Part shown: positions 3,549-37,805 of the stretch, one piece after another
Layout: each line of letters opens with the position of its first letter
Numbering within the stretch: the first letter of the stretch is position 1
DNA from: Patescibacteria group bacterium
Lineage (GTDB): Bacteria > Patescibacteriota > Minisyncoccia > Phycocordibacterales > Phycocordibacteraceae
Length of the DNA stretch: 64,000 nt
Direction of reading: 5' to 3'
NCBI GenBank assembly: GCA_018971045.1
Contig: JAGWVF010000003.1
Location: 42,793-106,792 of the forward strand
Notes under the pieces: generated by a model
What the model saw: the letters and a program-made list of their open reading frames with translations, nothing else
The model's database searches: none
What the model was told of the DNA's origin: nothing
Position numbers and translations under genes: made by a program

Positions 3549-5977
3549 GCATGAACGATTCTTTTATTTTGTGGTTTCAAGATATCTCCATGGACAACGT
3601 CGCCGAAGTCGGCGGGAAGAATGCGTCTTTGGGCGAGCTTATTCGCGCGCTCGAGCCGCAGGGCGTGCGCATCCCGCACGGATTTGCGGTAACCGCCGCG
3701 GCGTATTACCACTATTTGAAAGAGACGGGGCTCGATATTTTTATAGAAGCTACCCTCAAGGGACTCAATACCCGCAACCTCAAAGAGTTGTCTCGGCGCG
3801 GCAAGCTCGTCCGCGAGAAAATGCGGGCGACGCCGCTCCCCAAAGAGCTTGAACAGGCGATCGCTCTCGCTTATGCGCGTATGGAACAACAGTACGGCCG
3901 CCATACCGATGTGGCAGTACGTTCTTCGGCCACGGCTGAGGACTTGCCCGGCGCCTCTTTCGCAGGCGAGCAGGAAACGTATCTCAATATCCGCGGCGCG
4001 AAGGATGTGGCGCGCGCGGCTGTCTGGACGATGGCATCGCTGTTTACCGATCGGGCCATTTCTTATCGCGCAGACAAAGGATTCGACCATATGAAGGTCG
4101 CTCTTTCGGTCGGGGTACAGAAAATGGTCCGCTCCGATAAGGGCGCCTCGGGCGTAATGTTCACGGTCGACACCGAGAGCGGGTTCCATGACGTCGTGGT
4201 GGTGAATGCGACCTACGGCCTCGGCGAGATGATCGTGCAAGGACACGTTACTCCCGACGAATACCTGGTGAGAAAGTCCGCCATCGGCAATACGCGATCG
4301 CCCATCATTCTCAAAAAGATCGGCACCAATCTCAAGAAAATGATCTACGACACCGGAAAAAGCGGCGTAATCCAGACAAAGATCGTCTCCACTCCCGCAA
4401 TCGACGCGGCGCGCTTCGTTTTGACTGACGATGAGATCGTCACGATGGCCGGCTGGGGCGCTATCGTTGAAAAGCATTACTCCGAACGCGCGCAGAAGTG
4501 GACGCCGATGGATATGGAGTGGGCCAAGGACGGACTCACCGGCGAGTTGTATATCGTGCAGGCGCGCCCCGAGACCGTACAGGCCGAACGCGATTACACG
4601 AAACTCGTAGAGTACGCCGTCTCGGGCCAAGGCAAGGAACTCGCGCGGGGCATCTCGGTCGGCTCGAAAGCGGCTTCAGGCAAAGCGCATCTCATTATGA
4701 ATCCGAGACAAATTCGAGAATTCAGACAAGGGGAGATTCTCGTTACCGCGATGACTGATCCCGACTGGGAACCGATCATGAAAATGGCGAGCGCGATTGT
4801 TACCGATAAGGGCGGCCGCACGAGCCACGCGGCGATTGTCTCGCGCGAGCTCGGGCTTCCGGCGATTGTCGGATCCGGTAATGCGACCAAGGTGTTGAAA
4901 ACGGGCATGAGTATCACCGCCGATGCCTCGGGCAGCACGGGCGTCATTACCGCCGGTAAGGCGAAGATCATCGTGAAGGAGCACTCGCTTGGCACGCTTC
5001 CGAAAACGAAAACCAACATCATGGTGAACATCGCCTCGCCGGATATCGCCTTCGAGAACTCCTTCTTACCCGTCGAAGGCGTCGGGCTCGCGCGCGAGGA
5101 GTTCATTATCGCGTCAACGATCGGCATGCATCCGATGGCGCTCCTGAACTACAAGAAGCTCGACTCGAAGCTGAAGGCGGAAATCGCCAAGCGCATCCGG
5201 GGATGGAAGAGCCCCGTTGACTTCTATGTCGATAATCTTGCCTACGGCATCGCCAAGATCGGCGCCGCCTTCGCTCCAAGGAAGGTGATCGTCCGCTTCT
5301 CCGACTTCAAGACAAACGAATATTCAACGCTTCTTGGCGGCGCCGCATACGAACCAAAAGAAGAGAATCCGATGATCGGCTGGCGCGGCACCTCCCGTTA
5401 TTACGATCCGAAATTCAGAGACGCCTTCGCGCTTGAATGCCGAGCGCTCGTAAAGGTACGCGACGACATGGGGCTCGATAACGTTATCCCAATGCTCCCC
5501 TTCTGCCGAACGGTTCACGAGGCCGAGCAAGTGCTCTCGGTGATGGCCGCCCACGGCCTCACGGCGAAGTCGCTCGCAAAAGAGGGAGAGAAGGCGACGC
5601 CCGTCTATATGATGTGCGAGATTCCCTCGAACGTTCTCTTGGCCGAAGAGTTCCTCGATCTTTTCGACGGCATGTCGATCGGCAGCAATGACCTCACCCA
5701 GCTTACGCTCGGGCTCGACCGCGACTCGGGTATCGTTACCCATATCGGCAATGAAGATGACGAAGCGGTGCATGCACTCATCTCGATGGTAATCCGAAAA
5801 TGTAGCGCGCGCGGAAAATATATCGGCATCTGCGGCCAAGGACCCTCGGATCTTCCCGGTTTCGCTGAATTTCTCGTGAAAGAGGGTATTGAGAGCATGT
5901 CGCTTAATCCTGACTCGGTGGTAAAGACGATCGAGCATGTAGCCGAAGTCGAGGAGCGCATCGGCCGCTCGGTATGA
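3545..5977 (+). CDS. ppsA: phosphoenolpyruvate synthase (pyruvate, water dikinase)
   Basis: 810 aa; ATP-grasp N-domain, phosphohistidine swivel motif GGRTSHAAIVSRELGLPAIVG, C-terminal PEP-utilising TIM barrel. Confidence 0.85.
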   Translation: MSMNDSFILWFQDISMDNVAEVGGKNASLGELIRALEPQGVRIPHGFAVTAAAYYHYLKETGLDIFIEATLKGLNTRNLKELSRRGKLVREKMRATPLPKELEQAIALAYARMEQQYGRHTDVAVRSSATAEDLPGASFAGEQETYLNIRGAKDVARAAVWTMASLFTDRAISYRADKGFDHMKVALSVGVQKMVRSDKGASGVMFTVDTESGFHDVVVVNATYGLGEMIVQGHVTPDEYLVRKSAIGNTRSPIILKKIGTNLKKMIYDTGKSGVIQTKIVSTPAIDAARFVLTDDEIVTMAGWGAIVEKHYSERAQKWTPMDMEWAKDGLTGELYIVQARPETVQAERDYTKLVEYAVSGQGKELARGISVGSKAASGKAHLIMNPRQIREFRQGEILVTAMTDPDWEPIMKMASAIVTDKGGRTSHAAIVSRELGLPAIVGSGNATKVLKTGMSITADASGSTGVITAGKAKIIVKEHSLGTLPKTKTNIMVNIASPDIAFENSFLPVEGVGLAREEFIIASTIGMHPMALLNYKKLDSKLKAEIAKRIRGWKSPVDFYVDNLAYGIAKIGAAFAPRKVIVRFSDFKTNEYSTLLGGAAYEPKEENPMIGWRGTSRYYDPKFRDAFALECRALVKVRDDMGLDNVIPMLPFCRTVHEAEQVLSVMAAHGLTAKSLAKEGEKATPVYMMCEIPSNVLLAEEFLDLFDGMSIGSNDLTQLTLGLDRDSGIVTHIGNEDDEAVHALISMVIRKCSARGKYIGICGQGPSDLPGFAEFLVKEGIESMSLNPDSVVKTIEHVAEVEERIGRSV

Positions 5978-7158
5978 GAATTGATCGGCTCGAGGCCGTT
6001 ATGATTACCGACTCGCGCGGCAAGCCAACTCTCGAGACCACGATCTCGGCGAACGCGCTTTCGGCGACCGCCTCGGTGCCTTCGGGCAAGAGCACGGGAA
6101 TTCACGAAGCCGTCGAGCTTCGCGGCCCCGACGGGAACGTCGCGGAAGCGATAGCGAACGTCAATGGGGAGATCGCTCGCGCGATTGTCGGCAAGCGATT
6201 CTCGCTTGACGAACTCGACGCCGCGCTTATCAAGCTCGACGGCACGCCAAATAAATCGCGTCTCGGCGCCAACGCAATCCTCTCAGTCTCGATTGCGGCA
6301 CAGCGCCTCTTAGCGATGCTCGAGGATATTCCGCTGTGGAAAGCCATCGAGAAGCGGGCCGGAACGACTGCGGGCGCGCCGCGGCTCTTTATGAACGTGA
6401 TGAACGGCGGCGTGCATGCGGACTTCAAACTTCCGTTTCAGGAGTACCTCGTCGTCGTCGACGGCACGACTCGCGAGGCATTCGCGACCGCAAAAGAAGC
6501 GTTCGAGAAGCTCGGCGAACGGCTGGATGGCGTGCCAATGGGCGATGAGGGCGGCTACGCGCCCGCCTTCGATCAGCTTGAGGAACCATTCGAGATCCTC
6601 GCCGAGCTTGTCGCGCAGTTTCCGCACACCTCCATTGCGATCGATGCCGCGGCGAGTGAGTTCTATCGGGACGGCCAGTATCATATTTTGGATGCTTCTT
6701 ATTCAGCCGATGATCTCGCGCGGATCTACAGCGGCTTAGTGGAAAAATTTCCCTTTCACAGCATCGAGGATCCATTCGATGAGGAGTCCGCGGGCGACTT
6801 CACGCGATTCACCGCGTCTGTGGGGGAGAAAATTCTCGTGATCGGCGACGACTTCACGGTTACCAATCCGGATCGTATACTGAAAGCGCGCGAAGAACGG
6901 GCGATTAATGCGGTGCTTATTAAGCCGAACCAGATCGGCACGGTGAAAGAGGCTATCGAGGCGGTGCGGGCGACGTCCGCTGCCGGATGGAAAAGCGTAG
7001 CTTCGCACCGCTCGGGAGAAACGAATGACACCTTCATCGCCGACTTCGCGTATGGCGTCGGCGCGCACGGAATCAAAGCCGGCGGCCTCGGTCAGAAGGA
7101 ACGGATGGAAAAATACTACCGTCTGCTCGCTATCGAACGCGAGGCGGAACATAAATAA
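5974..7158 (+). CDS. eno: enolase
   Basis: Signature blocks SGKSTGIHEAVELRG, LGANAILSVS, GDEGGYAP, IKPNQIGT, SHRSGETND. Confidence 0.9.
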   Translation: MRIDRLEAVMITDSRGKPTLETTISANALSATASVPSGKSTGIHEAVELRGPDGNVAEAIANVNGEIARAIVGKRFSLDELDAALIKLDGTPNKSRLGANAILSVSIAAQRLLAMLEDIPLWKAIEKRAGTTAGAPRLFMNVMNGGVHADFKLPFQEYLVVVDGTTREAFATAKEAFEKLGERLDGVPMGDEGGYAPAFDQLEEPFEILAELVAQFPHTSIAIDAAASEFYRDGQYHILDASYSADDLARIYSGLVEKFPFHSIEDPFDEESAGDFTRFTASVGEKILVIGDDFTVTNPDRILKAREERAINAVLIKPNQIGTVKEAIEAVRATSAAGWKSVASHRSGETNDTFIADFAYGVGAHGIKAGGLGQKERMEKYYRLLAIEREAEHK

Positions 7159-7167
7159 CCTATCATC

Positions 7168-8169
7168 ATGAACATACACTATTTTTCAGGAGAGGCGTGG
7201 GAAGAACCGTTCGTGCGGGGGAAACTCCCGAACGACGAGATCACTTTTCATGACGGACCGTTTTCAGCGTACGCCGACCTTACCGACCTCGCCGCCGAAG
7301 CGCTCTGCACCTTTATAGAATCCAAGATTACTGATGCGGACATGGCGCGCTTCCCGTCTCTCAAGCTGATCGCGACGCGCTCTACCGGCTTTGATCATAT
7401 TGATCTTGCGGCCGCCAGCGCGCGCGGAATCTGCGTGGCGAATGTTCCCTTTTACGGAGAGAACACGGTCGCCGAATTCGCCTTCGCACTCCTCCTCGCG
7501 CTTTCCCGCCGCGTGATTGATGCGGACGAGCGCGTGCGCGAGGGAGTTTTCTCGCCGAAGGAACTGCGCGGCTTCGACCTCGCGGGCAAAACGATCGGCG
7601 TCATCGGCTGCGGACATATCGGCATGCACGTCATTAAGATGGCGAACGGCTTCGGGATGAAGGTGCTCGGCTTTGAGGTCCACCCGGATCCGAAGCGGGC
7701 GCAGGAAGGAGGCTTTACCTATGCGACAATGCCCGACCTTCTTGCGCAGTCTGACATCATTACCCTTCACGTCCCCTACAACGAGCACACCCACCATCTT
7801 ATCAACGCCGACACTATTAAAAATATCAAGAAAGGCGCGTACCTCATCAATACTGCGCGCGGCGCGGTTGTCGATACCTCCGCACTTGTCGGCGCGCTTA
7901 AAGACGGAACGCTCGCCGGCGCCGCGCTTGACGTTCTCGAAGAGGAAGGTGATCTCGCCGATGAGGTGGCGCTCCTTACGAACCCGCACCCGAACGCGGA
8001 GGAGCTTCGCGTAACGCTCGAAAATCATTATCTCATCGAACATCCGCGGGTAATCGTCACGCCGCACGTCGCTTTCAACACGATCGAGGCCGTCGAACGC
8101 ATCGTCGCGGCCACGATTGACAATATTAAAAACTTCGCCGCCGGCGCACCGACGAATGTCGTTTCTTAA
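7168..8169 (+). CDS. D-isomer-specific 2-hydroxyacid dehydrogenase (glycerate dehydrogenase/hydroxypyruvate reductase-like)
   Basis: 333 aa; NAD-binding GxGxxG (GVIGCGHIG), catalytic domain order typical of D-2-hydroxyacid DH family; sits in glycerate-PEP operon. Confidence 0.7.
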   Translation: MNIHYFSGEAWEEPFVRGKLPNDEITFHDGPFSAYADLTDLAAEALCTFIESKITDADMARFPSLKLIATRSTGFDHIDLAAASARGICVANVPFYGENTVAEFAFALLLALSRRVIDADERVREGVFSPKELRGFDLAGKTIGVIGCGHIGMHVIKMANGFGMKVLGFEVHPDPKRAQEGGFTYATMPDLLAQSDIITLHVPYNEHTHHLINADTIKNIKKGAYLINTARGAVVDTSALVGALKDGTLAGAALDVLEEEGDLADEVALLTNPHPNAEELRVTLENHYLIEHPRVIVTPHVAFNTIEAVERIVAATIDNIKNFAAGAPTNVVS

Positions 8170-9482
8170 AGATCGCTTCCAGGCTCGTAGGTAAACAGAT
8201 CATCGCTCGTTGTCGCCCATTTTTTCTGCAGCGGCGCGAGGATGCGCCACGATTCCAGAACCTCCTCGCTCGAAACGAAGAGGTCATGATCGCCGCGCAT
8301 CACGTCAACCAATACTTTTTCATACGCGTCCGGAAGCGCCGTATAGTAGTCAGCGTACGCGAAGCCGAGCGTCTGCTTCTCGACTAATCCCTCGTAGCCC
8401 GGGCGCCCTGACCAAATCGCGAGCGCCATTCCCTCATTCGGCTGCAGATGCAACACCAGCTCATTCGCCTCCTGATCCCGGTCTCTTTTGTAATAGACGC
8501 GAATCTCGGTCGTCTTTTTTGACAGCCTCTTCCCCGTCATAAGGCGAATCGGGACACCTTTCCATTGCGGCGCCGTTGATTCGAGCGTGAGATCGACATA
8601 CGTCTCGACCGTACTCGCCGGATTACCGACTTCCGTGCGGTATCCCGCGTATTGCCCGCGCCGCGCCGCGCCTGAAAGCCGAACGCGCTGGAGCGCGGCG
8701 TGGCGCCGTTTCGGGATACTCTCGATCTCCTGACCGTTCGGCAAAGCCATAAGGGTAAGCGCGGCGAGTTGAAGCAGGTGACTCTGCATCACGTCGCGGA
8801 GCGCGCCGGTCTGTTCGTAGAAGCGAGCGCGTCCCTCGATACCGATCGTTTCGCTCGCGCGGATCTCGATGCGCTCGATGAAATCTCCGTTCCAGGTTCG
8901 CCGAAACAGCGAATTGCGCTCGCGAAATACGATCAAATCTTGCGCCATGTGCTTCGCGAGATAATGGTCGATCCGATACACCTGCTCAGACGCGAAGTGC
9001 GCGCCGATATGTTCGGCAAGATCGGCGGCTGAGGCCAGATCGGTTCCAAATGGTTTCTCGAGCAACAGCTTCGTCTCCGGAATCCGCGCGAGACCCGAGA
9101 CGCCGAGATGTTCGACGATAGGTCGCACGGCGCGCGGCGGCACTGACATATAAAAGAGCCGCTGAGCGCGCGTGCCGAGCTCTTGCTCGATCAGGGCGAG
9201 TCTCGCCTTAAGACGCGCATAGGCTCGAGGATCATCGGTATCCATCGTAAAGAATTGGAGGCGATCGCGCACATGCGGCATCGTCGCCGCATTGACCCTT
9301 TCAACAGGTATCGATCCCTGGCGCGTGGTGCCGATAATGCGAGAATCCTTGGGGAGCGCACCGGCCCGGGCGATCGCCTCGATCGCGGGAAGGAGTTTCC
9401 GTCCCGCGAGGTCGCCCGTGATGCCGATGATGACGAGTAGGGCGGGAATCGCCGAGTCCATAGGTTTTCCAGTATACTGCAT
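8166..9482 (-). CDS. zwf: glucose-6-phosphate 1-dehydrogenase
   Basis: NADP-binding GITGDLAGRKLLPA near N-terminus, RIDHYLAKHMAQDL (G6PD active-site motif variant). ORF track extends to 9812 but the G6PD N-terminus begins at Met 9482 or 9461; the upstream extension overlaps the divergent sigma gene. Confidence 0.8.
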   Translation of the reverse strand: MQYTGKPMDSAIPALLVIIGITGDLAGRKLLPAIEAIARAGALPKDSRIIGTTRQGSIPVERVNAATMPHVRDRLQFFTMDTDDPRAYARLKARLALIEQELGTRAQRLFYMSVPPRAVRPIVEHLGVSGLARIPETKLLLEKPFGTDLASAADLAEHIGAHFASEQVYRIDHYLAKHMAQDLIVFRERNSLFRRTWNGDFIERIEIRASETIGIEGRARFYEQTGALRDVMQSHLLQLAALTLMALPNGQEIESIPKRRHAALQRVRLSGAARRGQYAGYRTEVGNPASTVETYVDLTLESTAPQWKGVPIRLMTGKRLSKKTTEIRVYYKRDRDQEANELVLHLQPNEGMALAIWSGRPGYEGLVEKQTLGFAYADYYTALPDAYEKVLVDVMRGDHDLFVSSEEVLESWRILAPLQKKWATTSDDLFTYEPGSDL

Positions 9483-9485: not shown

Positions 9486-10037
9486 ATGGATACGCCGCTC
9501 GAGCAAAAGACGGACGAGGAGCTCGTGCGGCTGGTGCAACGAAAGAATGAGACGGCATTCGGTGTAGTAATGAGCAGATATCAGCCGAAATTGCTTCGGT
9601 ATGGGAGAAAGTTCTTGTCGGATACGGCGCCTATCGAGGACGTGGTGCAGGAGGTGTTTATTAAAGCGTATCAAAATATCCAGAGCTTCGATACCGCGCG
9701 GCCATTCTCGCCATGGATCTACCGCATCGCCCATAATATGTTCGCCAATGCGCTGCGAGCCCGCGACCGCCTTCCGTTCATCACCGTCGATCTGGATATG
9801 TTTTCGGCGCACACCGCCTACGAGATCGATCCGGCAGGCGATGAAGAGCGCGGGCAGACGCGCGCGCTCGTTGAGCGCGGCCTCGCCTCGCTTTCGCCGC
9901 TCTACCGCGAAGTTCTGGTACTGTATTACATCGAACAGTTAAGCTATCAAGAGATCACCGAGGTTCTCCATGTGCCGATAGGGACGGTGGGCATCCGGCT
10001 CCGCCGCGCCCGCGAAGCTCTAAAAAAATATGTCTGA
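9486..10037 (+). CDS. ECF-type RNA polymerase sigma-70 family factor
   Basis: 183 aa; region 2 (AFGVVMSRYQPKLLRYGRKFL...VQEVFIKAY) and region 4 HTH (LSYQEITEVLHVPIGTVGIRLRRAREALKK). Confidence 0.8.
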   Translation: MDTPLEQKTDEELVRLVQRKNETAFGVVMSRYQPKLLRYGRKFLSDTAPIEDVVQEVFIKAYQNIQSFDTARPFSPWIYRIAHNMFANALRARDRLPFITVDLDMFSAHTAYEIDPAGDEERGQTRALVERGLASLSPLYREVLVLYYIEQLSYQEITEVLHVPIGTVGIRLRRAREALKKYV

Positions 10038-10743
10038 GGAACATAACATTCAGAAAAAGGTGCTCGATAAAATCCGCGCCGGAAGCGTGGGGATGCGTTC
10101 GCATGCCTATTTTGTCGCGCGCGCGTCACTCATTGGCATTACGGCGGGACTCGTCCTTATCTTCTCGCTCTTTGTGTTAAGTTATGTCTTTTTCAGTATC
10201 CGCGAGAGCGGCACCCATCTCCTTCTCACGTTTGGCGCGCACGGCGTCGCCACGTTCGCCGCGCTTTTCCCGTGGGCTTTTTTCATACTATGTCTTCTTC
10301 TGCTCTTTTTCTTGGGTGAAATGATCCGCCGCCATACATCCGCGTATCGACTCTCGCTCATCCGCCTGTTTGGCGGGATTCTCAGCGGCTCTATCGCTCT
10401 CAGCGCGCTTATCATGCTAACGCCGCTTCACTCTTCGTTTCTCTCGGCGGCGGATCACGATCGTCTGCCCTTCTTGAAATCATGGTATGACCAGATACAC
10501 AGGTCTCACACCGACCGCGGCATCTATCGAGGAACCGTCGTGACGGTCGCCACTTCGAGCTTCACCATTGCGCATAACGAGACCGACCCCGACTCCGACG
10601 AAGGCACCTGGACGGTTGAGCCGCCGACCAATTTCAATATCCGCGCGCTTGCCGTCGGAGAAAAGGTATACGTGGCTGGTACGGCCGCCGCCGGCACCAT
10701 ACGCGCGTTCGGCATCCGCGTGGTACCGCCGCGGCTCAAGTGA
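10030..10743 (+). CDS. putative membrane anti-sigma factor (hypothetical membrane protein co-transcribed with ECF sigma)
   Basis: 8-bp overlap with sigma gene; short cytoplasmic N-terminus then 3-4 TM helices and an extracytoplasmic C-domain; no recognisable family. Confidence 0.4.
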   Translation: MSEEHNIQKKVLDKIRAGSVGMRSHAYFVARASLIGITAGLVLIFSLFVLSYVFFSIRESGTHLLLTFGAHGVATFAALFPWAFFILCLLLLFFLGEMIRRHTSAYRLSLIRLFGGILSGSIALSALIMLTPLHSSFLSAADHDRLPFLKSWYDQIHRSHTDRGIYRGTVVTVATSSFTIAHNETDPDSDEGTWTVEPPTNFNIRALAVGEKVYVAGTAAAGTIRAFGIRVVPPRLK

Positions 10744-10797
10744 AAGAGAGGCCGCATCGATCGTGTATCTAGACTGTACTCTTAAAGCGATTCCTCT

Positions 10798-11319
10798 ATG
10801 CCTATCGGTAAAAAACTCATGCTCTCTGCCGGACTGATTGTTGTATCCGCGGCCTATGCGGTCTATCTGCGAGTGGTCAGTCCCGCATCTTCTGCCGCCG
10901 CGGTGCTACCCTCGGTAGCGAATCAGTCCGGAGTGGTTCAAATCGAACCGGCGCCCGCGCCCGCGCAACCGACGGCGGCAGAACCGGCTCCGACACCCGT
11001 ATCGGCGGCGGCGCCCGTCAAAAAAGCGGCCGGACAATACGCCGACGGTTCCTACACCGGAGGCGCCGTTGACGCCTATTACGGCATCGTCCAAGTAAAG
11101 GCGATCGTATCGGGCGGGAAGCTCACGGATATCCAGTTCCTCCAGTATCCGAATGATCGCGACCACACGCGCGAACTCAGCTTCTACGCGATGCCGCTCC
11201 TGAAGCAGGAAGCGATTTCGGCCCAGAATGCTCAGGTTGACAGCATCTCGGGAGCGACCGCCACGAGTGAAGGATTTTCTCAATCGCTCTCATCCGCGCT
11301 CGCTCGGGCGAAAAATTAA
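10798..11319 (+). CDS. extracytoplasmic FMN-binding domain protein (NqrC/RnfG-like) with flavinylation motif
   Basis: N-terminal membrane anchor, Ala/Pro-rich linker, C-terminal FMN_bind-type block ending DSISGATATSEGFSQSL (D-x-x-S-G-A-T is the ApbE flavinylation consensus). Confidence 0.65.
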   Translation: MPIGKKLMLSAGLIVVSAAYAVYLRVVSPASSAAAVLPSVANQSGVVQIEPAPAPAQPTAAEPAPTPVSAAAPVKKAAGQYADGSYTGGAVDAYYGIVQVKAIVSGGKLTDIQFLQYPNDRDHTRELSFYAMPLLKQEAISAQNAQVDSISGATATSEGFSQSLSSALARAKN

Positions 11320-12831
11320 ATGAACTTCATCGACTCATTCCTCAACAAAATAACGATGTACCGCCTCGTTCTGTATTACCTCGCGGCAATACTCGGCATA
11401 GCGGCGATCTTAAGCCTCTTCGGGATTCTCTCCGTCAATCCCGCCGATCTCGCTTTCTCGGCGTTTATCATTCTTGGCGCTTGCTGGAGCAGCAATTGGC
11501 TTTTCGCGAAGACGTTCGACGCGACCGCAAACGTTGAATCATTCTTCATCACCGCGCTCATTTTAACGCTTCTTATCTCACCGGTCGCGCCGACCGATCC
11601 GGCCGGCATCGGCTTCCTCATCTTCGCTTCCGTGTGGGCAATGGCGTCGAAATATATCCTCGCTCTCGGGAAAAAGCACGTCTTCAATCCCGCGGCATTC
11701 GGCGTCGCGCTCTCGGCGCTCGCAATCGGCCGGTCGGCGAGCTGGTGGGGCGCGAGTAACGCGGCGCTTCTTCCGATCATCCTTATTGGCGGACTGCTCG
11801 TCGTGCGCAAGATCCGCCGATTCGATCTCGCGCTTTCTTTCGCGATCGTCTCTTTCCTCACGATCGCCCTCACGGCGACCGGTAACGGCTTTACCGCGAT
11901 TGTGCAGACTGTCCTGCATTCTCCCTTTTTCTTTTTTGGACTCGTGATGCTCACCGAGCCGCTCACGATGCCGCCGAGCCGGCTCTTGCGCTTCTGTTAC
12001 GGCGCTCTGGTCGGCTTCCTCTTCGCGCCGAACATCCATATTGGAACGCTCTACTTTACTCCCGAGCTTGCACTCCTTATCGGCAACATCTTCGTCTATG
12101 CGGTAAGTCCCAAAGGCCGGTATCAGATGGCGCTCGTGGCGAGAAATGAGTTGGCCGCCGGTACGTATGAATTCGTATTCGCTCCGGATCGCCTCTTTCA
12201 TTTCCGTCCTGGACAATATCTCGAATGGACGCTCGGCCACAATAATCCCGACAGCCGCGGCAATCGCCGCTTCTTCACGATCGCTTCGTCGCCGACTGAA
12301 GCAGACGTTCGGCTGGGCGTGAAGTTTTACGGATCGAAAAGCAGCTTTAAGCGCGCGCTCGCGACCATGAAGGCGGCCGAGACGATTTCAGTCTGCCACC
12401 TCTCCGGAGACTTCGTACTGCCGAACGATAAAACAAAGAAACTCGTCTTTATCGCAGGCGGCATCGGCGTCACTCCTTTTCGCAGCATGGTACAATACCT
12501 GATCGATACGAAAGATACGCGCGCCGTCACCCTTCTCTACTCGAATGCTACCGCATCAGAAATTGCGTATAAGGAAGTGTTCGATCGCGCGGCGCGCGAG
12601 ATCGGCATGAAAACGCTGTACGTTCTCACCAACGAGCCGGCTTCCGTTCCTGGCGCCTACCATGGATTCATCGACGGCAAGGTCATTCGTCAGGCTGTTC
12701 CGGAGTACGAAGACTGCACGTTCTTTATCTCCGGCCCGCACGGCATGGTCGAAGCGTTTAAAAAGATATTGACGGACATGGGCGTCTCGCGCTTCAAGAT
12801 CAAGACCGATTATTTCCCGGGTTTCGCATAA
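11320..12831 (+). CDS. fusion protein: RnfD/NqrB-like polytopic membrane domain + FNR-like FAD/NAD(P)H oxidoreductase domain
   Basis: Residues ~60-280: LLISPVAPTD...KKHVFNPAAFGVALSAL and LTEPLT blocks parallel RnfD/NqrB (PPLAP...NPFNPAM...LTDPVT). C-terminal 220 aa: RRFFTIASSP (RxFS FAD motif) and KLVFIAGGIGVTPF (NAD(P)H motif). Starts 1 nt after upstream stop. Confidence 0.6.
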   Translation: MNFIDSFLNKITMYRLVLYYLAAILGIAAILSLFGILSVNPADLAFSAFIILGACWSSNWLFAKTFDATANVESFFITALILTLLISPVAPTDPAGIGFLIFASVWAMASKYILALGKKHVFNPAAFGVALSALAIGRSASWWGASNAALLPIILIGGLLVVRKIRRFDLALSFAIVSFLTIALTATGNGFTAIVQTVLHSPFFFFGLVMLTEPLTMPPSRLLRFCYGALVGFLFAPNIHIGTLYFTPELALLIGNIFVYAVSPKGRYQMALVARNELAAGTYEFVFAPDRLFHFRPGQYLEWTLGHNNPDSRGNRRFFTIASSPTEADVRLGVKFYGSKSSFKRALATMKAAETISVCHLSGDFVLPNDKTKKLVFIAGGIGVTPFRSMVQYLIDTKDTRAVTLLYSNATASEIAYKEVFDRAAREIGMKTLYVLTNEPASVPGAYHGFIDGKVIRQAVPEYEDCTFFISGPHGMVEAFKKILTDMGVSRFKIKTDYFPGFA

Positions 12832-12841
12832 TTCCTACCTT

Positions 12842-14683
12842 ATGAATGCCATCCTCACTCATATAACCGACACCGCAAAAATGATACCGACATGGTTCAT
12901 ATCACTGAAGAAAAAGATCGCGGCCCACAAAGTGATTTCTACCGTCATTATTCTTGTACTGCTCTACGCACTTTATTTTCTTTATGGCGTAATGACCGCG
13001 CCGTCAACCGCTATCCGCTACGTGACCGCTACGGTCGCCACGGGCACCGTCGTCGCGACAATAAGTGAAACCGGCCAAGTCTCGGCAAGCTCAAACGTAA
13101 GTATCCAGTCCCAGTCCTCCGGCGAAGTACTCTCGATCCCGGTGAGCGCCGGACAGCATGTCGTCGCCGGCGCGGCGCTCGCCTCTATCGATCCGACAAG
13201 CGCGCGACAAAACGTTACGAGTGCGCAGCAGGCGCTTCAGTCGGCACGGCTATCTCTCGCTAAACTCCAGGAGCCCGCCACTGCGGTGTCGTTAACTTCG
13301 GCACAAAATGCCGTCGCATCTGCACAGGCAAATCTCGTGCAGATACACCAAGCCGGCTACAACGATGTTTCTACTGCGTTTCTTGCACTTCCGGGAGTAA
13401 TTACGAATCTCGACGCGATCTTGCATGGGTTTGTTGTCCCCGGCCGCACGAGTGAACAAAACGAGTATGCCTATAACGATATGGTGATTCCCTACGATAG
13501 TAGCGTCATCCAGTACCAACAGACGGCCGAGAACGCCTATCAGACTGCCTATTCGGCGTATGCGCAAACGCTTGCTGATTTTAAATCAACACCGCGCACC
13601 GCGAGCGACTCCACGATCGAGGCGCTGATCGCCGAATCATATAAGACTGCCGCGAGTATTTCTGATGCGCTCAAAGCGGCCTCGAATTTCCTTAACTTCG
13701 TCAACTCGACGCTCACGAACCGCAACCTCTCGGTTCCTACCATCCTTACGACGCACCTCTCCACCCTTACCGCCTACACGACATCGACGAACGCGAGTGT
13801 CGCGGCGCTGTCGGCAGATACAGCAAACGTAACCAGTAATGAGCGCGCTCTTGCCGCCGCTCAAGCGGCGCTCACACAGGTAGAGGCTGGCGCTGATCCG
13901 CTCGACATTCAAGCGAGCCAGCTCTCGATCCAGATGAAGCAAGATGCCCTTATCCAGGCCGAACAGGCGCTCGCGAATACGGTCGTTCGGGCGCCGTTTA
14001 GCGGCACCCTCGCCAAACTCGCGGTGCAACAGTACCAGACTATCAGCAATGGAACGGCGGTTGCGACGATGGTAAGCGATAATCAGAGCGTTGCGCTTTC
14101 GGTTAATGAAGTCGATGCGGCGAAGCTTGCGGTTGGCCAGAAAGCGACTCTTACGTTTGACGCGCTTCCAAACATCTCCATTGCCGGAACAGTTTCGTCC
14201 GTCGATACTATTGGCACCGTCTCCTCGGGAGTCGTATCGTACAATGCAGTCGTCACCTTCGACACGCCAAACCAAGCCGTAAAGCCTGGTATGAGCGCGG
14301 CCGCGAGCATCATCACCGGTACCGAGACGGGTCTTCTCGTACCCCAAAGCGCGGTAAAAACCTCAAACGGCCAGAGTTACGTGCAGATCTTCTCGCCTCC
14401 GCTCGCCAATAGCTCGGGAACCACTGGCGCCACTTCATCGACTGCGCCGATACGCGCCTTCGTGACCACCGGTCTTTCGGACAACACGAATATCATCGTT
14501 GAAAGCGGGCTTCTTGACGGCGCACAAGTCGTTATCAAAACAATCGCCGGTTCATCGGCAACAGCCATGTCAAGCGCGGCGCAAAGCACCTCGATCTTCG
14601 GTATCGGCGGCAGCCGGATAGGAGGCGTCCCGGGCTCCACAATCCGTACGACCGGAAATACGGGGAATCGCGCCTCGCCATGA
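12842..14683 (+). CDS. HlyD/MacA-family periplasmic adaptor (membrane fusion protein) with long S/T/G-rich C-terminal tail
   Basis: 613 aa; N-terminal TM, biotin-lipoyl-like and coiled-coil segments, beta-barrel region (KATLTFDALP...), low-complexity tail; 4-bp overlap with downstream ABC ATPase. Confidence 0.6.
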   Translation: MNAILTHITDTAKMIPTWFISLKKKIAAHKVISTVIILVLLYALYFLYGVMTAPSTAIRYVTATVATGTVVATISETGQVSASSNVSIQSQSSGEVLSIPVSAGQHVVAGAALASIDPTSARQNVTSAQQALQSARLSLAKLQEPATAVSLTSAQNAVASAQANLVQIHQAGYNDVSTAFLALPGVITNLDAILHGFVVPGRTSEQNEYAYNDMVIPYDSSVIQYQQTAENAYQTAYSAYAQTLADFKSTPRTASDSTIEALIAESYKTAASISDALKAASNFLNFVNSTLTNRNLSVPTILTTHLSTLTAYTTSTNASVAALSADTANVTSNERALAAAQAALTQVEAGADPLDIQASQLSIQMKQDALIQAEQALANTVVRAPFSGTLAKLAVQQYQTISNGTAVATMVSDNQSVALSVNEVDAAKLAVGQKATLTFDALPNISIAGTVSSVDTIGTVSSGVVSYNAVVTFDTPNQAVKPGMSAAASIITGTETGLLVPQSAVKTSNGQSYVQIFSPPLANSSGTTGATSSTAPIRAFVTTGLSDNTNIIVESGLLDGAQVVIKTIAGSSATAMSSAAQSTSIFGIGGSRIGGVPGSTIRTTGNTGNRASP

Positions 14684-15420
14684 TCGAGTTTCAGAACATA
14701 TCGAAGATCTACAACCCGGGGACTCCTGAAGCATACACTGCTCTCCATAACATCAGCTTCGCCGTCAAAGACGAAGAATTCGTCGCCATCATGGGACCGT
14801 CGGGAAGCGGCAAGTCAACCTTGATGCATATTCTCGGGTGTCTTGATACGCCGACATCGGGTACGTATACACTCGATAACAAGGATGTCTCAACGATGAC
14901 CGACAACGAACTTGCCGAGATACGCAAGGATAAAATCGGTTTTGTCTTTCAGTCGTTTAATCTCCTTCCTCGAACGACTGTCCTCCGTAATGCGATGCTG
15001 CCGCTTGTCTACGCGGGCATCGCACCGCGGGAACGCGAAGCGCGTGCGATCGATGCGCTCCATGCGTCCGGCTTGACCGAAGAACACTTCTCGCATCTCT
15101 CGAATCAGCTCTCGGGCGGCGAGCGCCAGCGCGTCGCGATCGCGCGCGCGCTCGTGAACGAGCCGACTCTTATTCTCGCTGATGAGCCGACCGGCAATCT
15201 CGACTCGCACACGAGCCTGCTCGTCCTCGAGACGCTGCAACGGCTCAACCGTGAACATGGCGTCACTATCGTTCTCATTACGCATGAATCGGACATCGCT
15301 GGCCATGCGGCGCGCATTATCCGCGTTCGCGACGGAATCATTCTATCCGATGAAAAAAATGAGACGGTGCGCGATGCGGCTACTGAGACTAGACTCTATG
15401 ATGATCTCAAACGCTTATGA
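14680..15420 (+). CDS. ABC transporter ATP-binding protein, MacB/LolD family
   Basis: Walker A GPSGSGKST, signature LSGGERQRVAIARAL, Walker B ILADEPTGNLD. Confidence 0.9.
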   Translation: MIEFQNISKIYNPGTPEAYTALHNISFAVKDEEFVAIMGPSGSGKSTLMHILGCLDTPTSGTYTLDNKDVSTMTDNELAEIRKDKIGFVFQSFNLLPRTTVLRNAMLPLVYAGIAPREREARAIDALHASGLTEEHFSHLSNQLSGGERQRVAIARALVNEPTLILADEPTGNLDSHTSLLVLETLQRLNREHGVTIVLITHESDIAGHAARIIRVRDGIILSDEKNETVRDAATETRLYDDLKRL

Positions 15421-16652
15421 GAAACCGGGACCTTATTGACGAGACCTATTTTGCCTTGTCAGCGAACAAGGTGCGTTCTGGATTAACCGTCCTTGGTATC
15501 GTGATCGGCATCGCGTCGGTCATCGCGCTCACGGCGATTGGCCAAGGTGCGCAAACCTCGATTCAGACATCGATTCAATCAATCGGTTCCAATCTCATTG
15601 AAGTACTGCCGGGTGCCGCACGGCAATTCGGCTTTGGCGCCTCCGGCGGGCGTGGTACGGCCCGCTCGCTCACGGTCGATGATGAGAACGCGATTCTACA
15701 GGTTGCGAACGTCGCAGCCGTCTCCGGTGAGTTTACCAACCGGTACCAAATCGCCGCCGCGGGCGCGAATACCAATACGATGGTCACTGGCGTCAACGCT
15801 TCCTACGCTGCGATACGGAACCTTACCATTGATCAGGGGTCGTTCATCACGGACAATCAATCCTTATCGCTTGCCAAGGTTGCGGTTATCGGTCCGACGG
15901 TGGTTACGGATCTCTTCGGCGCAAGTGCGGTTTCAAGCGACGCCATCGGCCAGAATATCCGCATCAACAATATTCAATTCCAAATTATCGGCGTGACGAA
16001 AACCAAAGGCGGTTCGAGTTTTGGCAGCCAGGACACGATGGTGTTTATCCCGCTTGGCACCGCGCTCCAGTACTTTGCTGGTAATGGAAACGCTTACCTC
16101 TCGACCATCGATATCCAGGCGACCGATCAAAGCGCGATGACGCAAGTACAGAATGACGTCACCGCGCTCTTGCTTGCTCGCCACAACATGAGCGATCCAA
16201 CCAAAGCTGATTTCAGTATCCTTAATCAAACGGACTTGGTGACCGCCGCGTCAAGCGTCACTTCCACCCTCACGATGCTTCTCGCGGCGATCGCTGGGAT
16301 TTCGCTTATCGTCGGCGGCATCGGAATCATGAACATGATGCTCACGAACGTCACCGAGCGCATGCGCGAGATCGGGCTGCGGAAGGCGATCGGCGCAACC
16401 GAAAAGGACATTAATAATCAATTTCTCGTAGAAGCGATCGCGCTCACCTTTTTGGGCGGTATCTTCGGCATTGCGCTTGGCTGGGGAATATCCTTCGTCG
16501 TTACGCTCTCCGGACTCCTTACCGCACAGGTTACGCTTTCATCGATCCTTCTCGCCTCCGGCGTCTCTGCGGCGATCGGAATCGTTTTCGGCTGGTATCC
16601 CGCTCGCCAAGCGTCGAAACTCAATCCGATCGATGCCCTGCGCTACGAATAG
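15417..16652 (+). CDS. ABC transporter permease, FtsX/MacB family
   Basis: 411 aa; N-terminal TM, large periplasmic MacB_PCD-like domain, C-terminal FtsX 3-TM bundle (GIGIMNMMLTNVTERMREIGLRKAIGA). Confidence 0.85.
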   Translation: MRNRDLIDETYFALSANKVRSGLTVLGIVIGIASVIALTAIGQGAQTSIQTSIQSIGSNLIEVLPGAARQFGFGASGGRGTARSLTVDDENAILQVANVAAVSGEFTNRYQIAAAGANTNTMVTGVNASYAAIRNLTIDQGSFITDNQSLSLAKVAVIGPTVVTDLFGASAVSSDAIGQNIRINNIQFQIIGVTKTKGGSSFGSQDTMVFIPLGTALQYFAGNGNAYLSTIDIQATDQSAMTQVQNDVTALLLARHNMSDPTKADFSILNQTDLVTAASSVTSTLTMLLAAIAGISLIVGGIGIMNMMLTNVTERMREIGLRKAIGATEKDINNQFLVEAIALTFLGGIFGIALGWGISFVVTLSGLLTAQVTLSSILLASGVSAAIGIVFGWYPARQASKLNPIDALRYE

Positions 16653-16723
16653 CATAGATTGAGAAGTGAATGAAAAAGTGTACCGCGGTGTACTAGAGAT
16701 ATAATCAACAAATAAATAAATGT

Positions 16724-17128
16724 ATGAATAAAAAGAATAGCATTTTAGTCGCCATCGCTTTGGTCGTCGGTTTTGGCGCGGGCTACGCTCTCCATACCGT
16801 GCCAGTAGCGCCGACGGAGCCAACCGCGACAAGAATGGGCGGCGGCACATACAATGGTATGCGCGGAGGTATGAACGGCGGCGGATTCCTTTCAGGAACC
16901 GTAGCCGCTAAGGACTCGGGAAGCATCACTCTCGATACTCGTGACGGTAGTTCGCATATCATCATTCTTACGCCCGCGACTGTCGTCTCAAAGAGCGTCA
17001 GCGGCGCGCTTACCGATGTCACCGTCGGCTCAACGGCGATGGTATCGGGTACGACCAATAGCGACGGAAGCGTTTCCGCAAATATCATTCAACTACGTCC
17101 GACTTTTCAGCCATCCACAGCGCCTTAA
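16724..17128 (+). CDS. secreted/anchored Gly-rich hypothetical protein (DUF5666-like beta domain)
   Basis: Signal/anchor MNKKNSILVAIALVVGFGAGYA, Gly-rich linker, Thr/Ser/Val-rich beta-strand region. Confidence 0.4.
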   Translation: MNKKNSILVAIALVVGFGAGYALHTVPVAPTEPTATRMGGGTYNGMRGGMNGGGFLSGTVAAKDSGSITLDTRDGSSHIIILTPATVVSKSVSGALTDVTVGSTAMVSGTTNSDGSVSANIIQLRPTFQPSTAP

Positions 17129-17145: not shown

Positions 17146-17598
17146 CTATTCAGCCGCCTTCTCTTTCAGGCGTTCGAGCGTCTTCGTAAAGACCGCGAGC
17201 TCGCGCGGCGACAGTACGGAAAAGAGCGCGCCGAGCAGTCCGATGCCCCGCGTGATGGCCTTGGCGAGCTCCGCCTTCCCCTTGAAGGTCAGGCGCAGGC
17301 GCAACATGCGCCGATCTTCGCGATCCGGCACATAGGAAACGAGCCCGTTTTTTACGAGTCCGCGTATAAGCGCGGTCGCCGATGGAGCCGAGATAGATAA
17401 GTAGTCGGCAATGTCTTTCATCTTCGGTTCAGGATGGTCGGAGATAAACTTGAGCGTCTCGATGCGCGGCCATGTCGCGGGATCAAGATGCGTGTCGCGC
17501 GCGAGTGTCGTACGCATGATGCGCCTGACCGCGAAGAACAGTGATATCGCATAGGCGACATCGTGAGACGAGTGGCGTCGTGTAAGCGTGCGCGGCAT
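17146..17598 (-). CDS. MarR-family transcriptional regulator
   Basis: 150 aa; winged-helix block DIADYLSISAPSATALIRGLVKNGLVSYVPDREDRRMLRLRLT. Confidence 0.75.
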   Translation of the reverse strand: MPRTLTRRHSSHDVAYAISLFFAVRRIMRTTLARDTHLDPATWPRIETLKFISDHPEPKMKDIADYLSISAPSATALIRGLVKNGLVSYVPDREDRRMLRLRLTFKGKAELAKAITRGIGLLGALFSVLSPRELAVFTKTLERLKEKAAE

Positions 17599-17610
17599 GG
17601 ATATATGGTA

Positions 17611-19134
17611 TCAGCCCGCGGCCGCTTCGGCGCGCGCTTCCGCCGATAGTTCCGCGTCGCCCGCATTCGTTCTGAGGAACACGAGCGCGACAATCGCGCC
17701 GATCAGCATCGCCAGCGCGGCGTATCCGAAAACGGATCCGTAGGCCAAGAGATCCGCTTTCAAGATGATGAGCTGAGCCGCTTCGGCAAGGATGGTCGGC
17801 GTTGAACCGATGATGTGGGAATTTTGCGCGACTCTCAGCACATCGGCATTGGTCGCATTCGCGAGCAGTGTCCCGAAAATCGCGATACCGAAAGCGCCGC
17901 CGATATTGCGCGTCAGATTCAGGAGCCCCGAGGACATGCCGACTTCGCTAATCGGCACGGCCGTAGTCGCCGCAGTCGTAAGCGGCGCCATTCCAAGCCC
18001 GAGTCCGGCGCCGAAAAGAACGAGGGGGAGAACGAAATTCCACGAGGTCATGGCGGGATCGAGATGCATCATGCGGTACAACCCGAACGCGGAAAGCGCC
18101 ATACCGAAGGCGACCGTATAGCGCGGATTGATCGACGCCGCGAGCCGACCGCCGAGCGGCGCGAAGAGCGGCAAGGCGAGCGCCATCGGAACAAAGAGGA
18201 GTCCGCTCTCGGTCGCCGAATAGTGCAAGAACGTCTGGGTGAATACAGGCAAGAGGAACATCGCGCCCATCATGCCTCCGAAGGAAATAAACGAGACCGC
18301 GAGTACCGACACGATGATCGGATTGCTGAAGAATTTGAAGTCGATAATCGGATGCGCATGTCGCGTCTCGAACCGATATACTAAGAACCCGAATACTGCC
18401 GTGCCTGCATAACAGAGCAGGCTCGCATTCGAGAGCCACCCCCACTCTTGGCCGCGGTCAACCACAAGCACGAGGCTCGAGATCGCGCCGGAGAGGAGCA
18501 GTGCGCCCAGCCAATCGAAAGCGCCGCGCTCGCCCGGACGGTCGTGCGGAAGAAAGAGGAGCGTCATAAGGAGACCCATGATGCCGATCGGCAAATTGAT
18601 GAAGAAGACCCAGCGCCATACGTAGTTATCAACAAGGTATCCGCCGAGCAACGGTCCGATGACCGCCGAAACGGCGAACGAGGACGACCAGATGCCGAGC
18701 GCCTGCGCGCGCGCTTTTTGATCGGTAAATGATTTCGCGATGAGAGACATCGCCGTTGGATATATCGCCGCTCCGACGAGCCCCTGCAACACGCGGAAGA
18801 AAACCATCGAGCTGAAATCCCACGCGAATCCCGCGAACATCGACACGATAATGAAGCCGGCAAAACTCCAGAGATAAATGACGCGATTGCCGAACAAGTC
18901 GCCCAGCTTGCCGAATACCGGCACGAAGATCGCGTTGCTGATGATGTAGGCCGTCGCAATCCACGCGGCCGTCGACACCGTGATGCCGAAATCGCTGATC
19001 ATCTTGGGCATCGCGAGATTCACCACGGTGCGATCGAGGCCGATGAGCAACGTGCCGACCATCACGGTCGAGAGCACGAGCCACGGATGTCCCGTGAGCC
19101 GGTGCGCCGATGACTGCTCAAGCGTCCGTTCCAT
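17611..19134 (-). CDS. MFS transporter, DHA2 (14-TMS EmrB/QacA-like) drug:H+ antiporter
   Basis: 507 aa, ~14 TM helices, MFS motif A GxLxDxxGxR (GKLGDLFGNRV). Confidence 0.85.
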   Translation of the reverse strand: MERTLEQSSAHRLTGHPWLVLSTVMVGTLLIGLDRTVVNLAMPKMISDFGITVSTAAWIATAYIISNAIFVPVFGKLGDLFGNRVIYLWSFAGFIIVSMFAGFAWDFSSMVFFRVLQGLVGAAIYPTAMSLIAKSFTDQKARAQALGIWSSSFAVSAVIGPLLGGYLVDNYVWRWVFFINLPIGIMGLLMTLLFLPHDRPGERGAFDWLGALLLSGAISSLVLVVDRGQEWGWLSNASLLCYAGTAVFGFLVYRFETRHAHPIIDFKFFSNPIIVSVLAVSFISFGGMMGAMFLLPVFTQTFLHYSATESGLLFVPMALALPLFAPLGGRLAASINPRYTVAFGMALSAFGLYRMMHLDPAMTSWNFVLPLVLFGAGLGLGMAPLTTAATTAVPISEVGMSSGLLNLTRNIGGAFGIAIFGTLLANATNADVLRVAQNSHIIGSTPTILAEAAQLIILKADLLAYGSVFGYAALAMLIGAIVALVFLRTNAGDAELSAEARAEAAAG

Positions 19135-19136
19135 CG

Positions 19137-19751: not shown

Positions 19752-19752
19752 A

Positions 19753-24838: not shown

Positions 24839-24843
24839 AAACT

Positions 24844-25866: not shown

Positions 25867-25869
25867 CAT

Positions 25870-27527: not shown

Positions 27528-27602
27528 AACGTTCGATTAGATTACTGATAATGAGGTCGCCCTCGTCAACCACTACGCAACCCATCCCAGATTCCTTACA
27601 AA

Positions 27603-29298: not shown

Positions 29299-29305
29299 GA
29301 TCTTC

Positions 29306-30160: not shown

Positions 30161-30163
30161 ATC

Positions 30164-32279: not shown

Positions 32280-32386
32280 TATACTTCGTATCGAAGATTT
32301 CGTACCATACTGCCCCTAGGGCCGACCAGTACCGGTTCTTGGTGTCACAATCGCACTGCGCTGGTAGCATGAGATCTCGCAACCTA

Positions 32387-33989: not shown

Positions 33990-34011
33990 AACACATGATT
34001 ATCGTCAGTAG

Positions 34012-37803: not shown

Positions 37804-37805
37804 AT

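Follow-up and report, generated by a model that had tools for sequence, protein, structure and literature searches.

A two-gene NQR/RNF-like module of a Patescibacteria bacterium, predicted to carry NAD(P)H electrons to an extracytoplasmic flavin, and its sigma factor and apbE context

The module described here lies in a 64,000-nucleotide stretch (the window) of contig JAGWVF010000003.1 from a Patescibacteria group bacterium (GenBank assembly GCA_018971045.1, positions 42,793 to 106,792). It consists of two adjacent genes at 10798-12831, one for a membrane-anchored protein with a domain for binding flavin mononucleotide (FMN) and the other for a 503-amino-acid fusion of an RnfD/NqrB-like membrane domain with a ferredoxin-NADP+ reductase (FNR)-type domain for flavin adenine dinucleotide (FAD) and NAD(P)H. 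An earlier reading of the DNA letters without database searches (the sequence-only reading) had described the pair as a stripped-down conduit from NAD(P)H to an extracytoplasmic flavin. Our analysis supports this description: the pair probably forms an NQR/RNF-like complex that carries NAD(P)H electrons to an extracytoplasmic acceptor, a reading to which we assign a probability of about 0.72. Gene content, folds, motifs, the deletion of a loop, and conserved gene neighborhoods were observed directly; cofactors, direction of electron flow, topology, regulation, and acceptor are inferred. Patescibacteria lack a conventional respiratory chain and have very small genomes, and a two-protein device leading from NAD(P)H to the outside might be the means by which they restore the balance of redox cofactors or reduce substrates outside the cell. 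The same mechanism was proposed, also by inference, in two published studies (PMC8238504; PMC10979944).

The fusion is 100% identical to KGM48_01700, which is annotated at NCBI as a hypothetical protein. All of the motifs that the sequence-only reading had quoted for it are present where they would be expected. In the membrane half, these are PVAPTD (residues 88 to 93), HVFNPAAFG (120 to 128), and LTEPLT (211 to 216), for which the counterparts read from the sequence of Escherichia coli RsxD are PPLAP, NPFNPAM, and LTDPVT; in the soluble half, they are RRFFTIASSP (316 to 325) and GGIGVTPF (380 to 387). An AlphaFold2 model built on an alignment of 53 homologues was confident (pLDDT, 86.8; pTM, 0.75) and recovered the two halves that had been described, with ∼10 membrane helices in residues 1 to 262, followed by a β-barrel that begins right after the last transmembrane (TM) helix and then by a Rossmann-type domain. 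An RnfD/NqrB fold for the membrane half is supported, with sequence comparisons that are weak but consistent.

A profile of the family aligned with E. coli RsxD in two blocks (residues 18 to 143 with RsxD 23 to 142 and residues 156 to 261 with RsxD 229 to 336). RsxD residues 143 to 228, an 86-residue stretch that includes the flavinylated D-G-I-S-Q-A-T187, had no counterpart, and the fusion has 12 residues (144 to 155) in their place. Thus, the loop that bears covalent FMN was deleted rather than mutated. Furthermore, a motif scan found no D-x-x-[ST]-G-A-[TS] in the fusion, which agrees with the earlier proposal that the membrane half lacks the RnfD/NqrB flavinylation site. Helix count and the positive-inside rule suggest that the residual loop (residues 136 to 147) faces outward and that the FNR domain is cytoplasmic; positively charged segments are located at RKIRR (163 to 167), R221/R224, and K265/R267. 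A140, W142, and W143 are invariant across the fusion family. The SA(S/T)WW sequence of the loop (139 to 143) was considered as a relic of the flavinylation motif and rejected, as it aligns with the ..MTSW of RsxD 139 to 142, after the NPFNPAM helix, and not with DGISQAT187.

The soluble half matched PF00175 (NAD_binding_1; E = 8.6e-16), and no Fer2 hit was found in the fusion with Pfam or NCBIfam, as anticipated by the earlier description of an FAD/NAD(P)H domain without a 2Fe-2S domain. The NCBIfam model for NqrF (TIGR01941) scored 57 bits versus a cutoff of 295, and only model residues 227 to 403 were matched.

The stop codon of the partner gene ends at 11319 and the ATG of the fusion starts at 11320, which bears out the earlier statement that the fusion follows 1 nucleotide later. 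The 173-amino-acid partner matched PF04205 (FMN_bind; E = 4.5e-8, above the gathering score). Its Lys-rich N terminus (MPIGKK) is followed by an 18-residue hydrophobic segment that resembles a signal anchor or signal peptide, then by an Ala/Pro-rich linker and a compact FMN_bind domain. Such a hydrophobic N-terminal segment was detected in 49 of 53 family members (maximum 15-residue hydropathy, >1.6). The sequence-only reading had the exported protein ending in DSISGATATS; the motif is indeed present (in the context V-D-S-I-S-G-A-T-A-T-S), but it occupies residues 148 to 157 of 173 and is not the end. It is the sole match to D-x-x-[ST]-G-A-[TS] within a real gene in the whole window, and D-x-[IV]-[ST]-G-A-[TS] is kept at an equal distance from the C terminus in most of 53 partner proteins from related loci. 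Thr154 is the predicted site of the phosphoester link to FMN. The PF04205 match and the conserved ApbE motif confirm that the partner carries a flavinylatable FMN_bind domain.

The label NqrC/RnfG-type, which had also been given to this protein, holds at the level of the FMN_bind domain and fails as a family match. The NCBIfam equivalog models for nqrC (TIGR01938) and RnfG_DVU2794 scored 19.2 bits versus a cutoff of 144 and 16.4 bits versus a cutoff of 205, respectively, with matches that cover only about the last 40 residues. A PDB search with the FMN_bind profile had as its closest solved relative 8p2a_A (E = 1.8e-22), a small FMN-binding domain that stands alone; chains of NqrC or RnfG were not among the matches at E ≤ 1. 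Judged by these comparisons, the partner is an FMN_bind-superfamily protein in a presumed RnfG-like role and not an NqrC/RnfG orthologue.

In the proposed mechanism, NAD(P)H would reduce FAD in the cytoplasmic FNR domain, and electrons would cross the membrane via the RnfD/NqrB-like domain, most likely by way of a noncovalent flavin at the position of the RnfD/NqrB riboflavin. They would then reach a covalent FMN that is carried not by the membrane domain but by Thr154 of the separate anchored FMN_bind protein. This FMN would occupy or sample the outer pocket vacated by the deletion of the RnfD flavinylation loop and would pass electrons to an extracytoplasmic acceptor. Such a path would correspond to the NADH-to-RnfC-to-RnfD-to-RnfG half of Rnf, with the FNR domain in place of RnfC. 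In RnfD and NqrB, a distance of 8 Å separates the riboflavin near the cytoplasmic face from the FMN near the periplasmic one (PMC12174285), so that two flavin sites would be enough to span the membrane.

The pair does not look like part of a six-subunit Nqr or Rnf, as the sequence-only reading had noted: the window contains no RnfA, RnfB, RnfC, or RnfE homologue, and E. coli RsxA, RsxB, RsxC, and RsxE gave nothing credible against its six reading frames (best E = 0.011, on the antisense of an ATP-binding cassette [ABC] gene). Compared to Rnf (e.g., PDB 8ahx and 7zc6), the [2Fe-2S]-bearing RnfA/E pair, RnfB, and RnfC have no counterpart in this window, an FNR domain is fused in RnfC's place, the ∼86-residue RnfD flavinylation loop is gone, the partner is a compact domain of ∼85 residues that is nearer to stand-alone FMN-binding domains (8p2a) than to RnfG, and there is no return path to the cytoplasm. 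Compared to Na+-NQR (NqrB, NqrC, and NqrF; e.g., PDB 7xk3 and 8a1t), the 2Fe-2S domain and TM anchor of NqrF are missing, NqrA, NqrD, and NqrE are absent, and the membrane domain is without a covalent-FMN site. It could be argued that the module is nonetheless a minimal ion-translocating pump, in which an RnfD/NqrB-type Na+/H+ pathway would couple NAD(P)H oxidation to ion export and give a membrane potential without a respiratory chain. However, current coupling models need the RnfA/E (NqrD/E) switch together with a swinging RnfG/NqrC, the A/E pair is absent from the window, and the ion path of Rnf is itself disputed (PMC12174285). Thus, it seems distinctly unlikely that the module is a pump.

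In the NOX/FRE/MsrQ reductases the membrane domain is unrelated; the domain here has the RnfD/NqrB fold, presumably with flavins, and no bis-His heme sites, and its outer redox center would be on a separate flavinylated protein. Flavin-based extracellular electron transfer in Listeria (Ndh2, EetA/B, PplA, and FmnB) shares with the module an ApbE-family enzyme, an outer electron carrier in the form of an FMN_bind protein at the surface, and NAD(P)H as the ultimate donor. It differs in that its route passes via the quinone pool and EetA/B and that FmnB is a secreted lipoprotein, whereas here a direct protein wire is proposed and ApbE is leaderless.

Loci with this architecture have been described. 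In the definition of Meheust et al. (2021; PMC8238504), an NQR/RNF-like system is a flavinylation-associated gene cluster with a PF03116-PF00175 fusion. Their screen, which asked for both a PF03116 match and a signal peptide predicted within the cluster, yielded 127 clusters, for the most part from Actinobacteria and the candidate phyla radiation. Huang et al. (2024; PMC10979944) modeled the complex of Ktedonobacter, in which the NqrB/RnfD-like subunit is without the flavinylated Thr. Their AlphaFold-multimer model places the flavinylation site of the partner beside the flavin pocket of the RnfD-like subunit, an outer pocket equivalent to that of FMN(NqrB), and they suggested that the covalent FMN of the partner samples this pocket. 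A one-way path from NAD(P)H to an extracytosolic FMN was proposed in both studies.

By the features used in 2021, the locus analyzed here has a C-terminal PF00175 domain and an FMN_bind gene within five genes, in this case directly adjacent. It shares with the published system the NqrB/RnfD-like domain fused to PF00175, the adjacent anchored FMN_bind protein with an ApbE motif, the membrane subunit without a flavinylated Thr, the one-way model, and the range of taxa (candidate phyla radiation, Chloroflexota including Ktedonobacteria, and Actinobacteria). The locus is a true member of the two-subunit NQR/RNF-like system, matching the two published descriptions in every point, and since the basic idea is already in print, the locus itself is no discovery. 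It differs in that apbE is 10.7 kb away on the other strand instead of in the operon, and in that an extracytoplasmic function (ECF) sigma factor and an anti-sigma-like protein with an oligonucleotide/oligosaccharide-binding (OB) fold precede the module and a MacB-type ABC transporter and a DUF5666 protein follow it. The sigma/anti-sigma, MacB, and DUF5666 associations were not found in the accessible sections of PMC8238504 and PMC10979944. What is added here is the displaced apbE, the leaderless ApbEs, the OB-fold anti-sigma family beside the module, the recurrent MacB/DUF5666 partners, and a larger family.

The 127 clusters of the first survey fall far short of the family's size. The fusion was found in at least 429 species-level genomes among the GTDB species representatives, in Patescibacteria, Chloroflexota (including Ktedonobacteria), Alpha- and Gammaproteobacteria, Spirochaetota, and Actinobacteria. 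More than 7,470 of 8,000 candidates from a collection clustered at 90% identity scored as fusion homologues, and the membrane domain alone gave 1,574 clusters at 50% identity, mostly of ∼500 amino acids. Like many of its relatives, the fusion falls below the PF03116 threshold and would probably fail the 2021 screen, which helps to explain the low published count. A survey of gene order upheld the unit as a recurring one: FMN_bind, ApbE, and fusion genes were adjacent in 51 of 76 related loci, in the canonical order with ApbE directly upstream of the fusion, and these 51 loci were drawn from Patescibacteria, Chloroflexota, Proteobacteria, Spirochaetota, and Actinobacteria. Several loci labeled uncultured Gammaproteobacteria (L041, L045, L048, L057, etc.) carry a Patescibacteria-like module, and their content looks like that of the candidate phyla radiation, so misbinning or mislabeling is possible.

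This conservation bears on whether the pair might be the decaying, functionless remnant of an Rnf or Nqr operon. Only two of six subunit types are present, the flavinylation loop has been lost, and apbE is displaced, all of which might be expected of a remnant. However, the open reading frames (ORFs) are intact, and mean column identity over 53 fusion homologues is 77%, with dozens of invariant residues, many of them in the membrane domain. The same architecture and the same deletion also occur in at least five phyla. With such conservation and so many homologues, decay is effectively refuted as an explanation.

Several results weigh against the reading of the pair as an electron conduit to the outside. 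PF03116 (NQR2_RnfD_RnfE) matched residues 20 to 260 of the fusion at only 20.3 bits (E = 3.9e-4), below the gathering score of 27.7, so that of the three domain assignments made earlier, those to PF04205 and PF00175 were significant and the one to the RnfD/NqrB family was subthreshold. The single match of the membrane-domain profile in the PDB, to RnfD, was marginal (E = 0.013), and the riboflavin-like site in the membrane domain is an assumption. Cotranscription of the module is suggested by gene spacing only; scans of the locus for sigma-70 promoters and terminators returned background-level hits. No evident electron acceptor was present among the genes neighboring the module. A text search of the literature returned no further paper on the NQR/RNF-like system and no experiment on any member. 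Finally, the ApbE enzymes encoded with these modules have no leader, which is difficult to square with flavinylation of a domain outside the membrane and is a concrete weak point of the model proposed so far.

The sequence-only reading had raised the question of an apbE gene in this genome, and one was found across the left edge of the window. ApbEs of the operon type matched positions 103 to 2 on the minus strand (tblastn; E about 1e-4; translation MKNRRLIMGMPVEV...). Contig L081, which is identical to the window over 10,722 nucleotides, carries the complete gene, which encodes 247 amino acids with a PF02424 match. A hidden Markov model of 55 operon ApbEs found only this fragment, and nothing internal, in the six frames of the window. 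The gene lies 10.7 kb upstream of the module on the opposite strand. Along its whole length, its product shares 55 to 60% identity with the ApbEs that lie inside related operons; these enzymes are ∼246 amino acids long and match PF02424 at E = 1e-35 to 1e-38. We propose that this enzyme attaches FMN to the partner. Loci L085 and L087 show how apbE and the module genes became separated: in L085, apbE is divergent from a 2-hydroxyacid dehydrogenase-FMN_bind-fusion operon, and in L087 the genes follow one another as they do in the window (apbE, doxX, glycerate kinase, pyruvate phosphate dikinase [PPDK]-type enzyme, enolase, 2-hydroxyacid dehydrogenase, FMN_bind, and fusion).

Canonical ApbE works outside the membrane. 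None of the 55 operon-type ApbEs, including that of this genome, had a signal peptide or hydrophobic leader, even at maximal N-terminal extension; they open directly on the first strand of the fold (M-K-x-T-R-x-x-M-G-M-P) at about residue 8. Flavinylation may take place before export, the enzyme may reach the outside by another route, or the FMN domain may be cytoplasmic. In the last case, the complex would be an NAD(P)H reductase with an acceptor in the membrane, such as quinone reduced at the NqrB-type quinone and riboflavin side, and not an exporter of electrons. The leaderless enzymes favor this explanation, leaderless ApbEs being known only for cytosolic targets, which they modify in the cytosol (PMC12052999), and the quinone site of NqrB is beside the riboflavin on the cytoplasmic side (PMC12174285). 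However, the N termini of the FMN_bind proteins (Lys/Arg, a hydrophobic helix, and a Pro/Ala/Thr-rich linker) are typical N-in/C-out anchors. Helix count and charge distribution map the deleted flavin loop to the outside, and, to our knowledge, Patescibacteria generally lack quinones. The published multimer model also docks the domain at the outer pocket (PMC10979944). A cytoplasmic FMN domain therefore seems very unlikely, and transfer to an extracytoplasmic flavin is preferred.

The neighborhood of the module and its signaling context offer the best clue to the acceptor. Positions 9486 to 17128 hold eight closely packed plus-strand genes, from the ECF sigma factor through the DUF5666 protein, and the four genes of 9486-12831 (ECF sigma, anti-sigma-like, FMN_bind, and fusion) were all found as ORFs at those coordinates. 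The gap between the fusion and the following HlyD gene is 10 nucleotides, and the two are probably cotranscribed; an HlyD gene recurs beside the module in related loci. In 14 of 77 loci (the 76 related loci and the window), a gene of the ABC/FtsX type is no more than five genes away from the fusion, and the DUF5666 family adjoins the module in six loci, with the window counted. These neighbors bear on the possibility that the complex is an assimilatory reductase of metal (Fe3+, Mn, or Cu) or flavin that feeds uptake, analogous to the NOX/FRE-like ferric reductases with flavins in place of hemes. In the window, the module has no metal transporter beside it, and the first metal genes (CopA, HMA-DsbD, and cupredoxin) are reached only 9.8 kb downstream. 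Metal transporters are also missing from most loci up to a distance of five genes from the fusion, and the neighbors that do recur are MacB-type ABC, DUF5666, and signaling genes. A role in metal or flavin assimilation is therefore unlikely.

The sequence-only reading had also spoken of a sigma/anti-sigma operon, and the sigma factor was confirmed. The 183-amino-acid sigma factor has regions 2 and 4 only (Sigma70_r2, E = 4.3e-19; Sigma70_r4_2, E = 3.7e-15) and matches the ECF family model (TIGR02937, 102 bits versus a cutoff of 42.9), and the gene for a 237-amino-acid membrane protein overlaps it by 8 nucleotides. This second protein has a short cytoplasmic N-terminal helix (only ∼30 residues are cytoplasmic), three predicted TM helices, and an extracytoplasmic, DUF5666-like OB-fold domain at its C terminus. 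It had no Pfam or NCBIfam match and no recognizable N-terminal anti-sigma domain (class I, ZAS/RskA type), and it is a putative anti-sigma factor by virtue of its overlap with the sigma gene and the conserved pairing. A weak Pfam match in one homologue, together with the OB fold, suggests a link to DUF5666. Direct comparison with the DUF5666 protein at 16724 (BLASTP) gave no significant similarity and was set aside.

The anti-sigma-like family is small (8 clusters in 5.8 billion proteins), and it adjoins an ECF sigma gene and the reductase module in every locus with visible flanking genes. In metagenomes, a single-sequence query returned no relatives and an alignment query returned four short loci. 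Sigma/anti-sigma pairs homologous to that of the window also occur beside the module in L084, L086, L091, L092, L041, L093, and L094, in differing gene orders. The order is sigma-antisigma-FMN_bind-fusion in the window and L084, sigma-antisigma-ApbE-FMN_bind-fusion in L086 and L092, and sigma-antisigma-FMN_bind-ApbE in L091. In L093 and L094, the module is divergent from sigma-antisigma-MacB/FtsX-ABC genes, with a 146-amino-acid gene without a Pfam match between the anti-sigma and MacB genes in L094. The link to an ECF sigma factor is real and confined to a small lineage. Alignment of the 135 nucleotides upstream of five sigma genes revealed no conserved motif that could be a shared ECF promoter.

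Transcription of the module in this lineage most likely depends on the dedicated ECF sigma/OB-fold anti-sigma pair and includes the MacB-type ABC exporter. Such dedicated control would point to an inducible envelope function and not to housekeeping respiration. A more far-reaching proposal, which we regard as tentative and on the whole doubtful, has two linked parts. In a small Paceibacteria lineage, the reductase would be the output of a dedicated envelope-signaling unit in which an ECF sigma factor is governed by a three-TM anti-sigma with an OB-fold/DUF5666-like sensor. With the MacB-type exporter and DUF5666 proteins, it would make up a single inducible system by which bacteria without a respiratory chain dispose of electrons or detoxify. 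In addition, ApbE would be cytoplasmic in all lineages examined, so that either FMN is attached before export, by an undescribed maturation route, or the published outward topology is wrong.

Features of the NQR/RNF-like locus and its surroundings (window coordinates)
Feature	Position	Strand	Basis or remark
apbE (flavin transferase), first 34 codons	1..103	-	remainder of the 247-aa gene past the window's left edge
ECF-type sigma factor, 183 aa	9486..10037	+	Sigma70_r2, Sigma70_r4_2, TIGR02937
Putative anti-sigma factor, 237 aa	10030..10743	+	8-nt overlap with sigma gene; conserved pairing
Membrane-anchored FMN_bind protein, 173 aa	10798..11319	+	PF04205; domain at residues 94-168
ApbE flavinylation motif, D148-S-I-S-G-A-T154	11239..11259	+	motif scan; Thr154 = 11257-11259
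RnfD/NqrB-like membrane domain of fusion, residues 1-265, ~10 TM helices	11320..12114	+	
Short extracytoplasmic loop of fusion, residues 136-147, GRSASWWGASNA	11725..11760	+	outer-face placement inferred
Cytoplasmic FNR-type FAD/NAD(P)H domain of fusion, residues 268-503, without 2Fe-2S domain	12121..12831	+	
HlyD-family membrane-fusion protein, 613 aa	12842..14683	+	HlyD_3, E = 4.7e-14
MacB-type ABC transporter, ATPase	14680-15420	+	ABC_tran, 1e-34
MacB_PCD/FtsX permease	15417-16652	+	MacB_PCD, 4.7e-41; FtsX, 2.4e-21
Small membrane-anchored DUF5666 protein, 134 aa	16724..17128	+	PF18914, E = 7.3e-4, subthreshold

The apbE gene is divergent from a gene for a DoxX-family membrane protein (window 162-722, plus strand), a pairing that is kept in L087, and on L081 it is followed, to the left of the window, by an ABC exporter with fused transmembrane and nucleotide-binding domains (L081:1-1485, minus strand). 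Between apbE and the FMN_bind-fusion pair (window 2262-9461; also L085 and L087) are genes for glycerate kinase, a PPDK/phosphoenolpyruvate-utilizing enzyme, enolase, and a D-2-hydroxyacid dehydrogenase, joined in this window only by glucose-6-phosphate dehydrogenase. In L085, the dehydrogenase gene overlaps the start of FMN_bind. With genes for lower glycolysis and NAD(P)H metabolism so placed, the module may have a part in keeping NAD(P)H in balance.

Right downstream of the operon, on the minus strand (window 17146-21042), are genes for a MarR regulator, a major facilitator superfamily transporter, and two HlyD-like adaptors, a block that also follows the fusion in L085. A copper cluster is located at 22598-26262 (plus strand) and encodes a CopA-like P-type ATPase (746 amino acids, named solely for a metal-binding motif at its N terminus), an HMA-DsbD_2 fusion (340 amino acids), and a cupredoxin-like protein (130 amino acids); L094 also has a cupredoxin near its NQR/RNF-like module. 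A second ECF sigma gene (28078-28650, minus strand) overlaps a gene for a 163-amino-acid protein without a Pfam match (27603-28094), next to which a 108-amino-acid secreted-looking protein is encoded; the block spans 27201-28650.

The stretch from ∼29000 to 40100 has a lower GC content (47 to 53% versus ∼57%) and ends at a tRNA-Met gene (40027-40098). Its cargo includes a NUDIX-pyrophosphatase fusion, an LD-carboxypeptidase, an APH-family kinase, and a Fic-domain protein, and it may be an integrated island. Right after a tRNA-Ser gene (57377-57465) is an island of 37% GC in which a gene for an MvaI/BcnI-family restriction endonuclease (57509-58210, plus strand) lies beside a single 621-amino-acid ORF (58207-60072, minus strand) in which a LexA DNA-binding domain occurs together with an S24 self-cleaving peptidase and an N6/N4 DNA methyltransferase. 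This looks like a mobile restriction-modification system under unusual control, with the methylase fused to a LexA-type repressor. At 60244-61725 (minus strand), a fusion protein of 493 amino acids contains both a cytochrome b561-type membrane domain (PF01292) and a molybdopterin oxidoreductase domain (PF00174, sulfite-oxidase/MsrP-like). Judged from these domains, it would be a second extracytoplasmic redox device, dependent on heme and molybdenum cofactor and unexpected for Patescibacteria.

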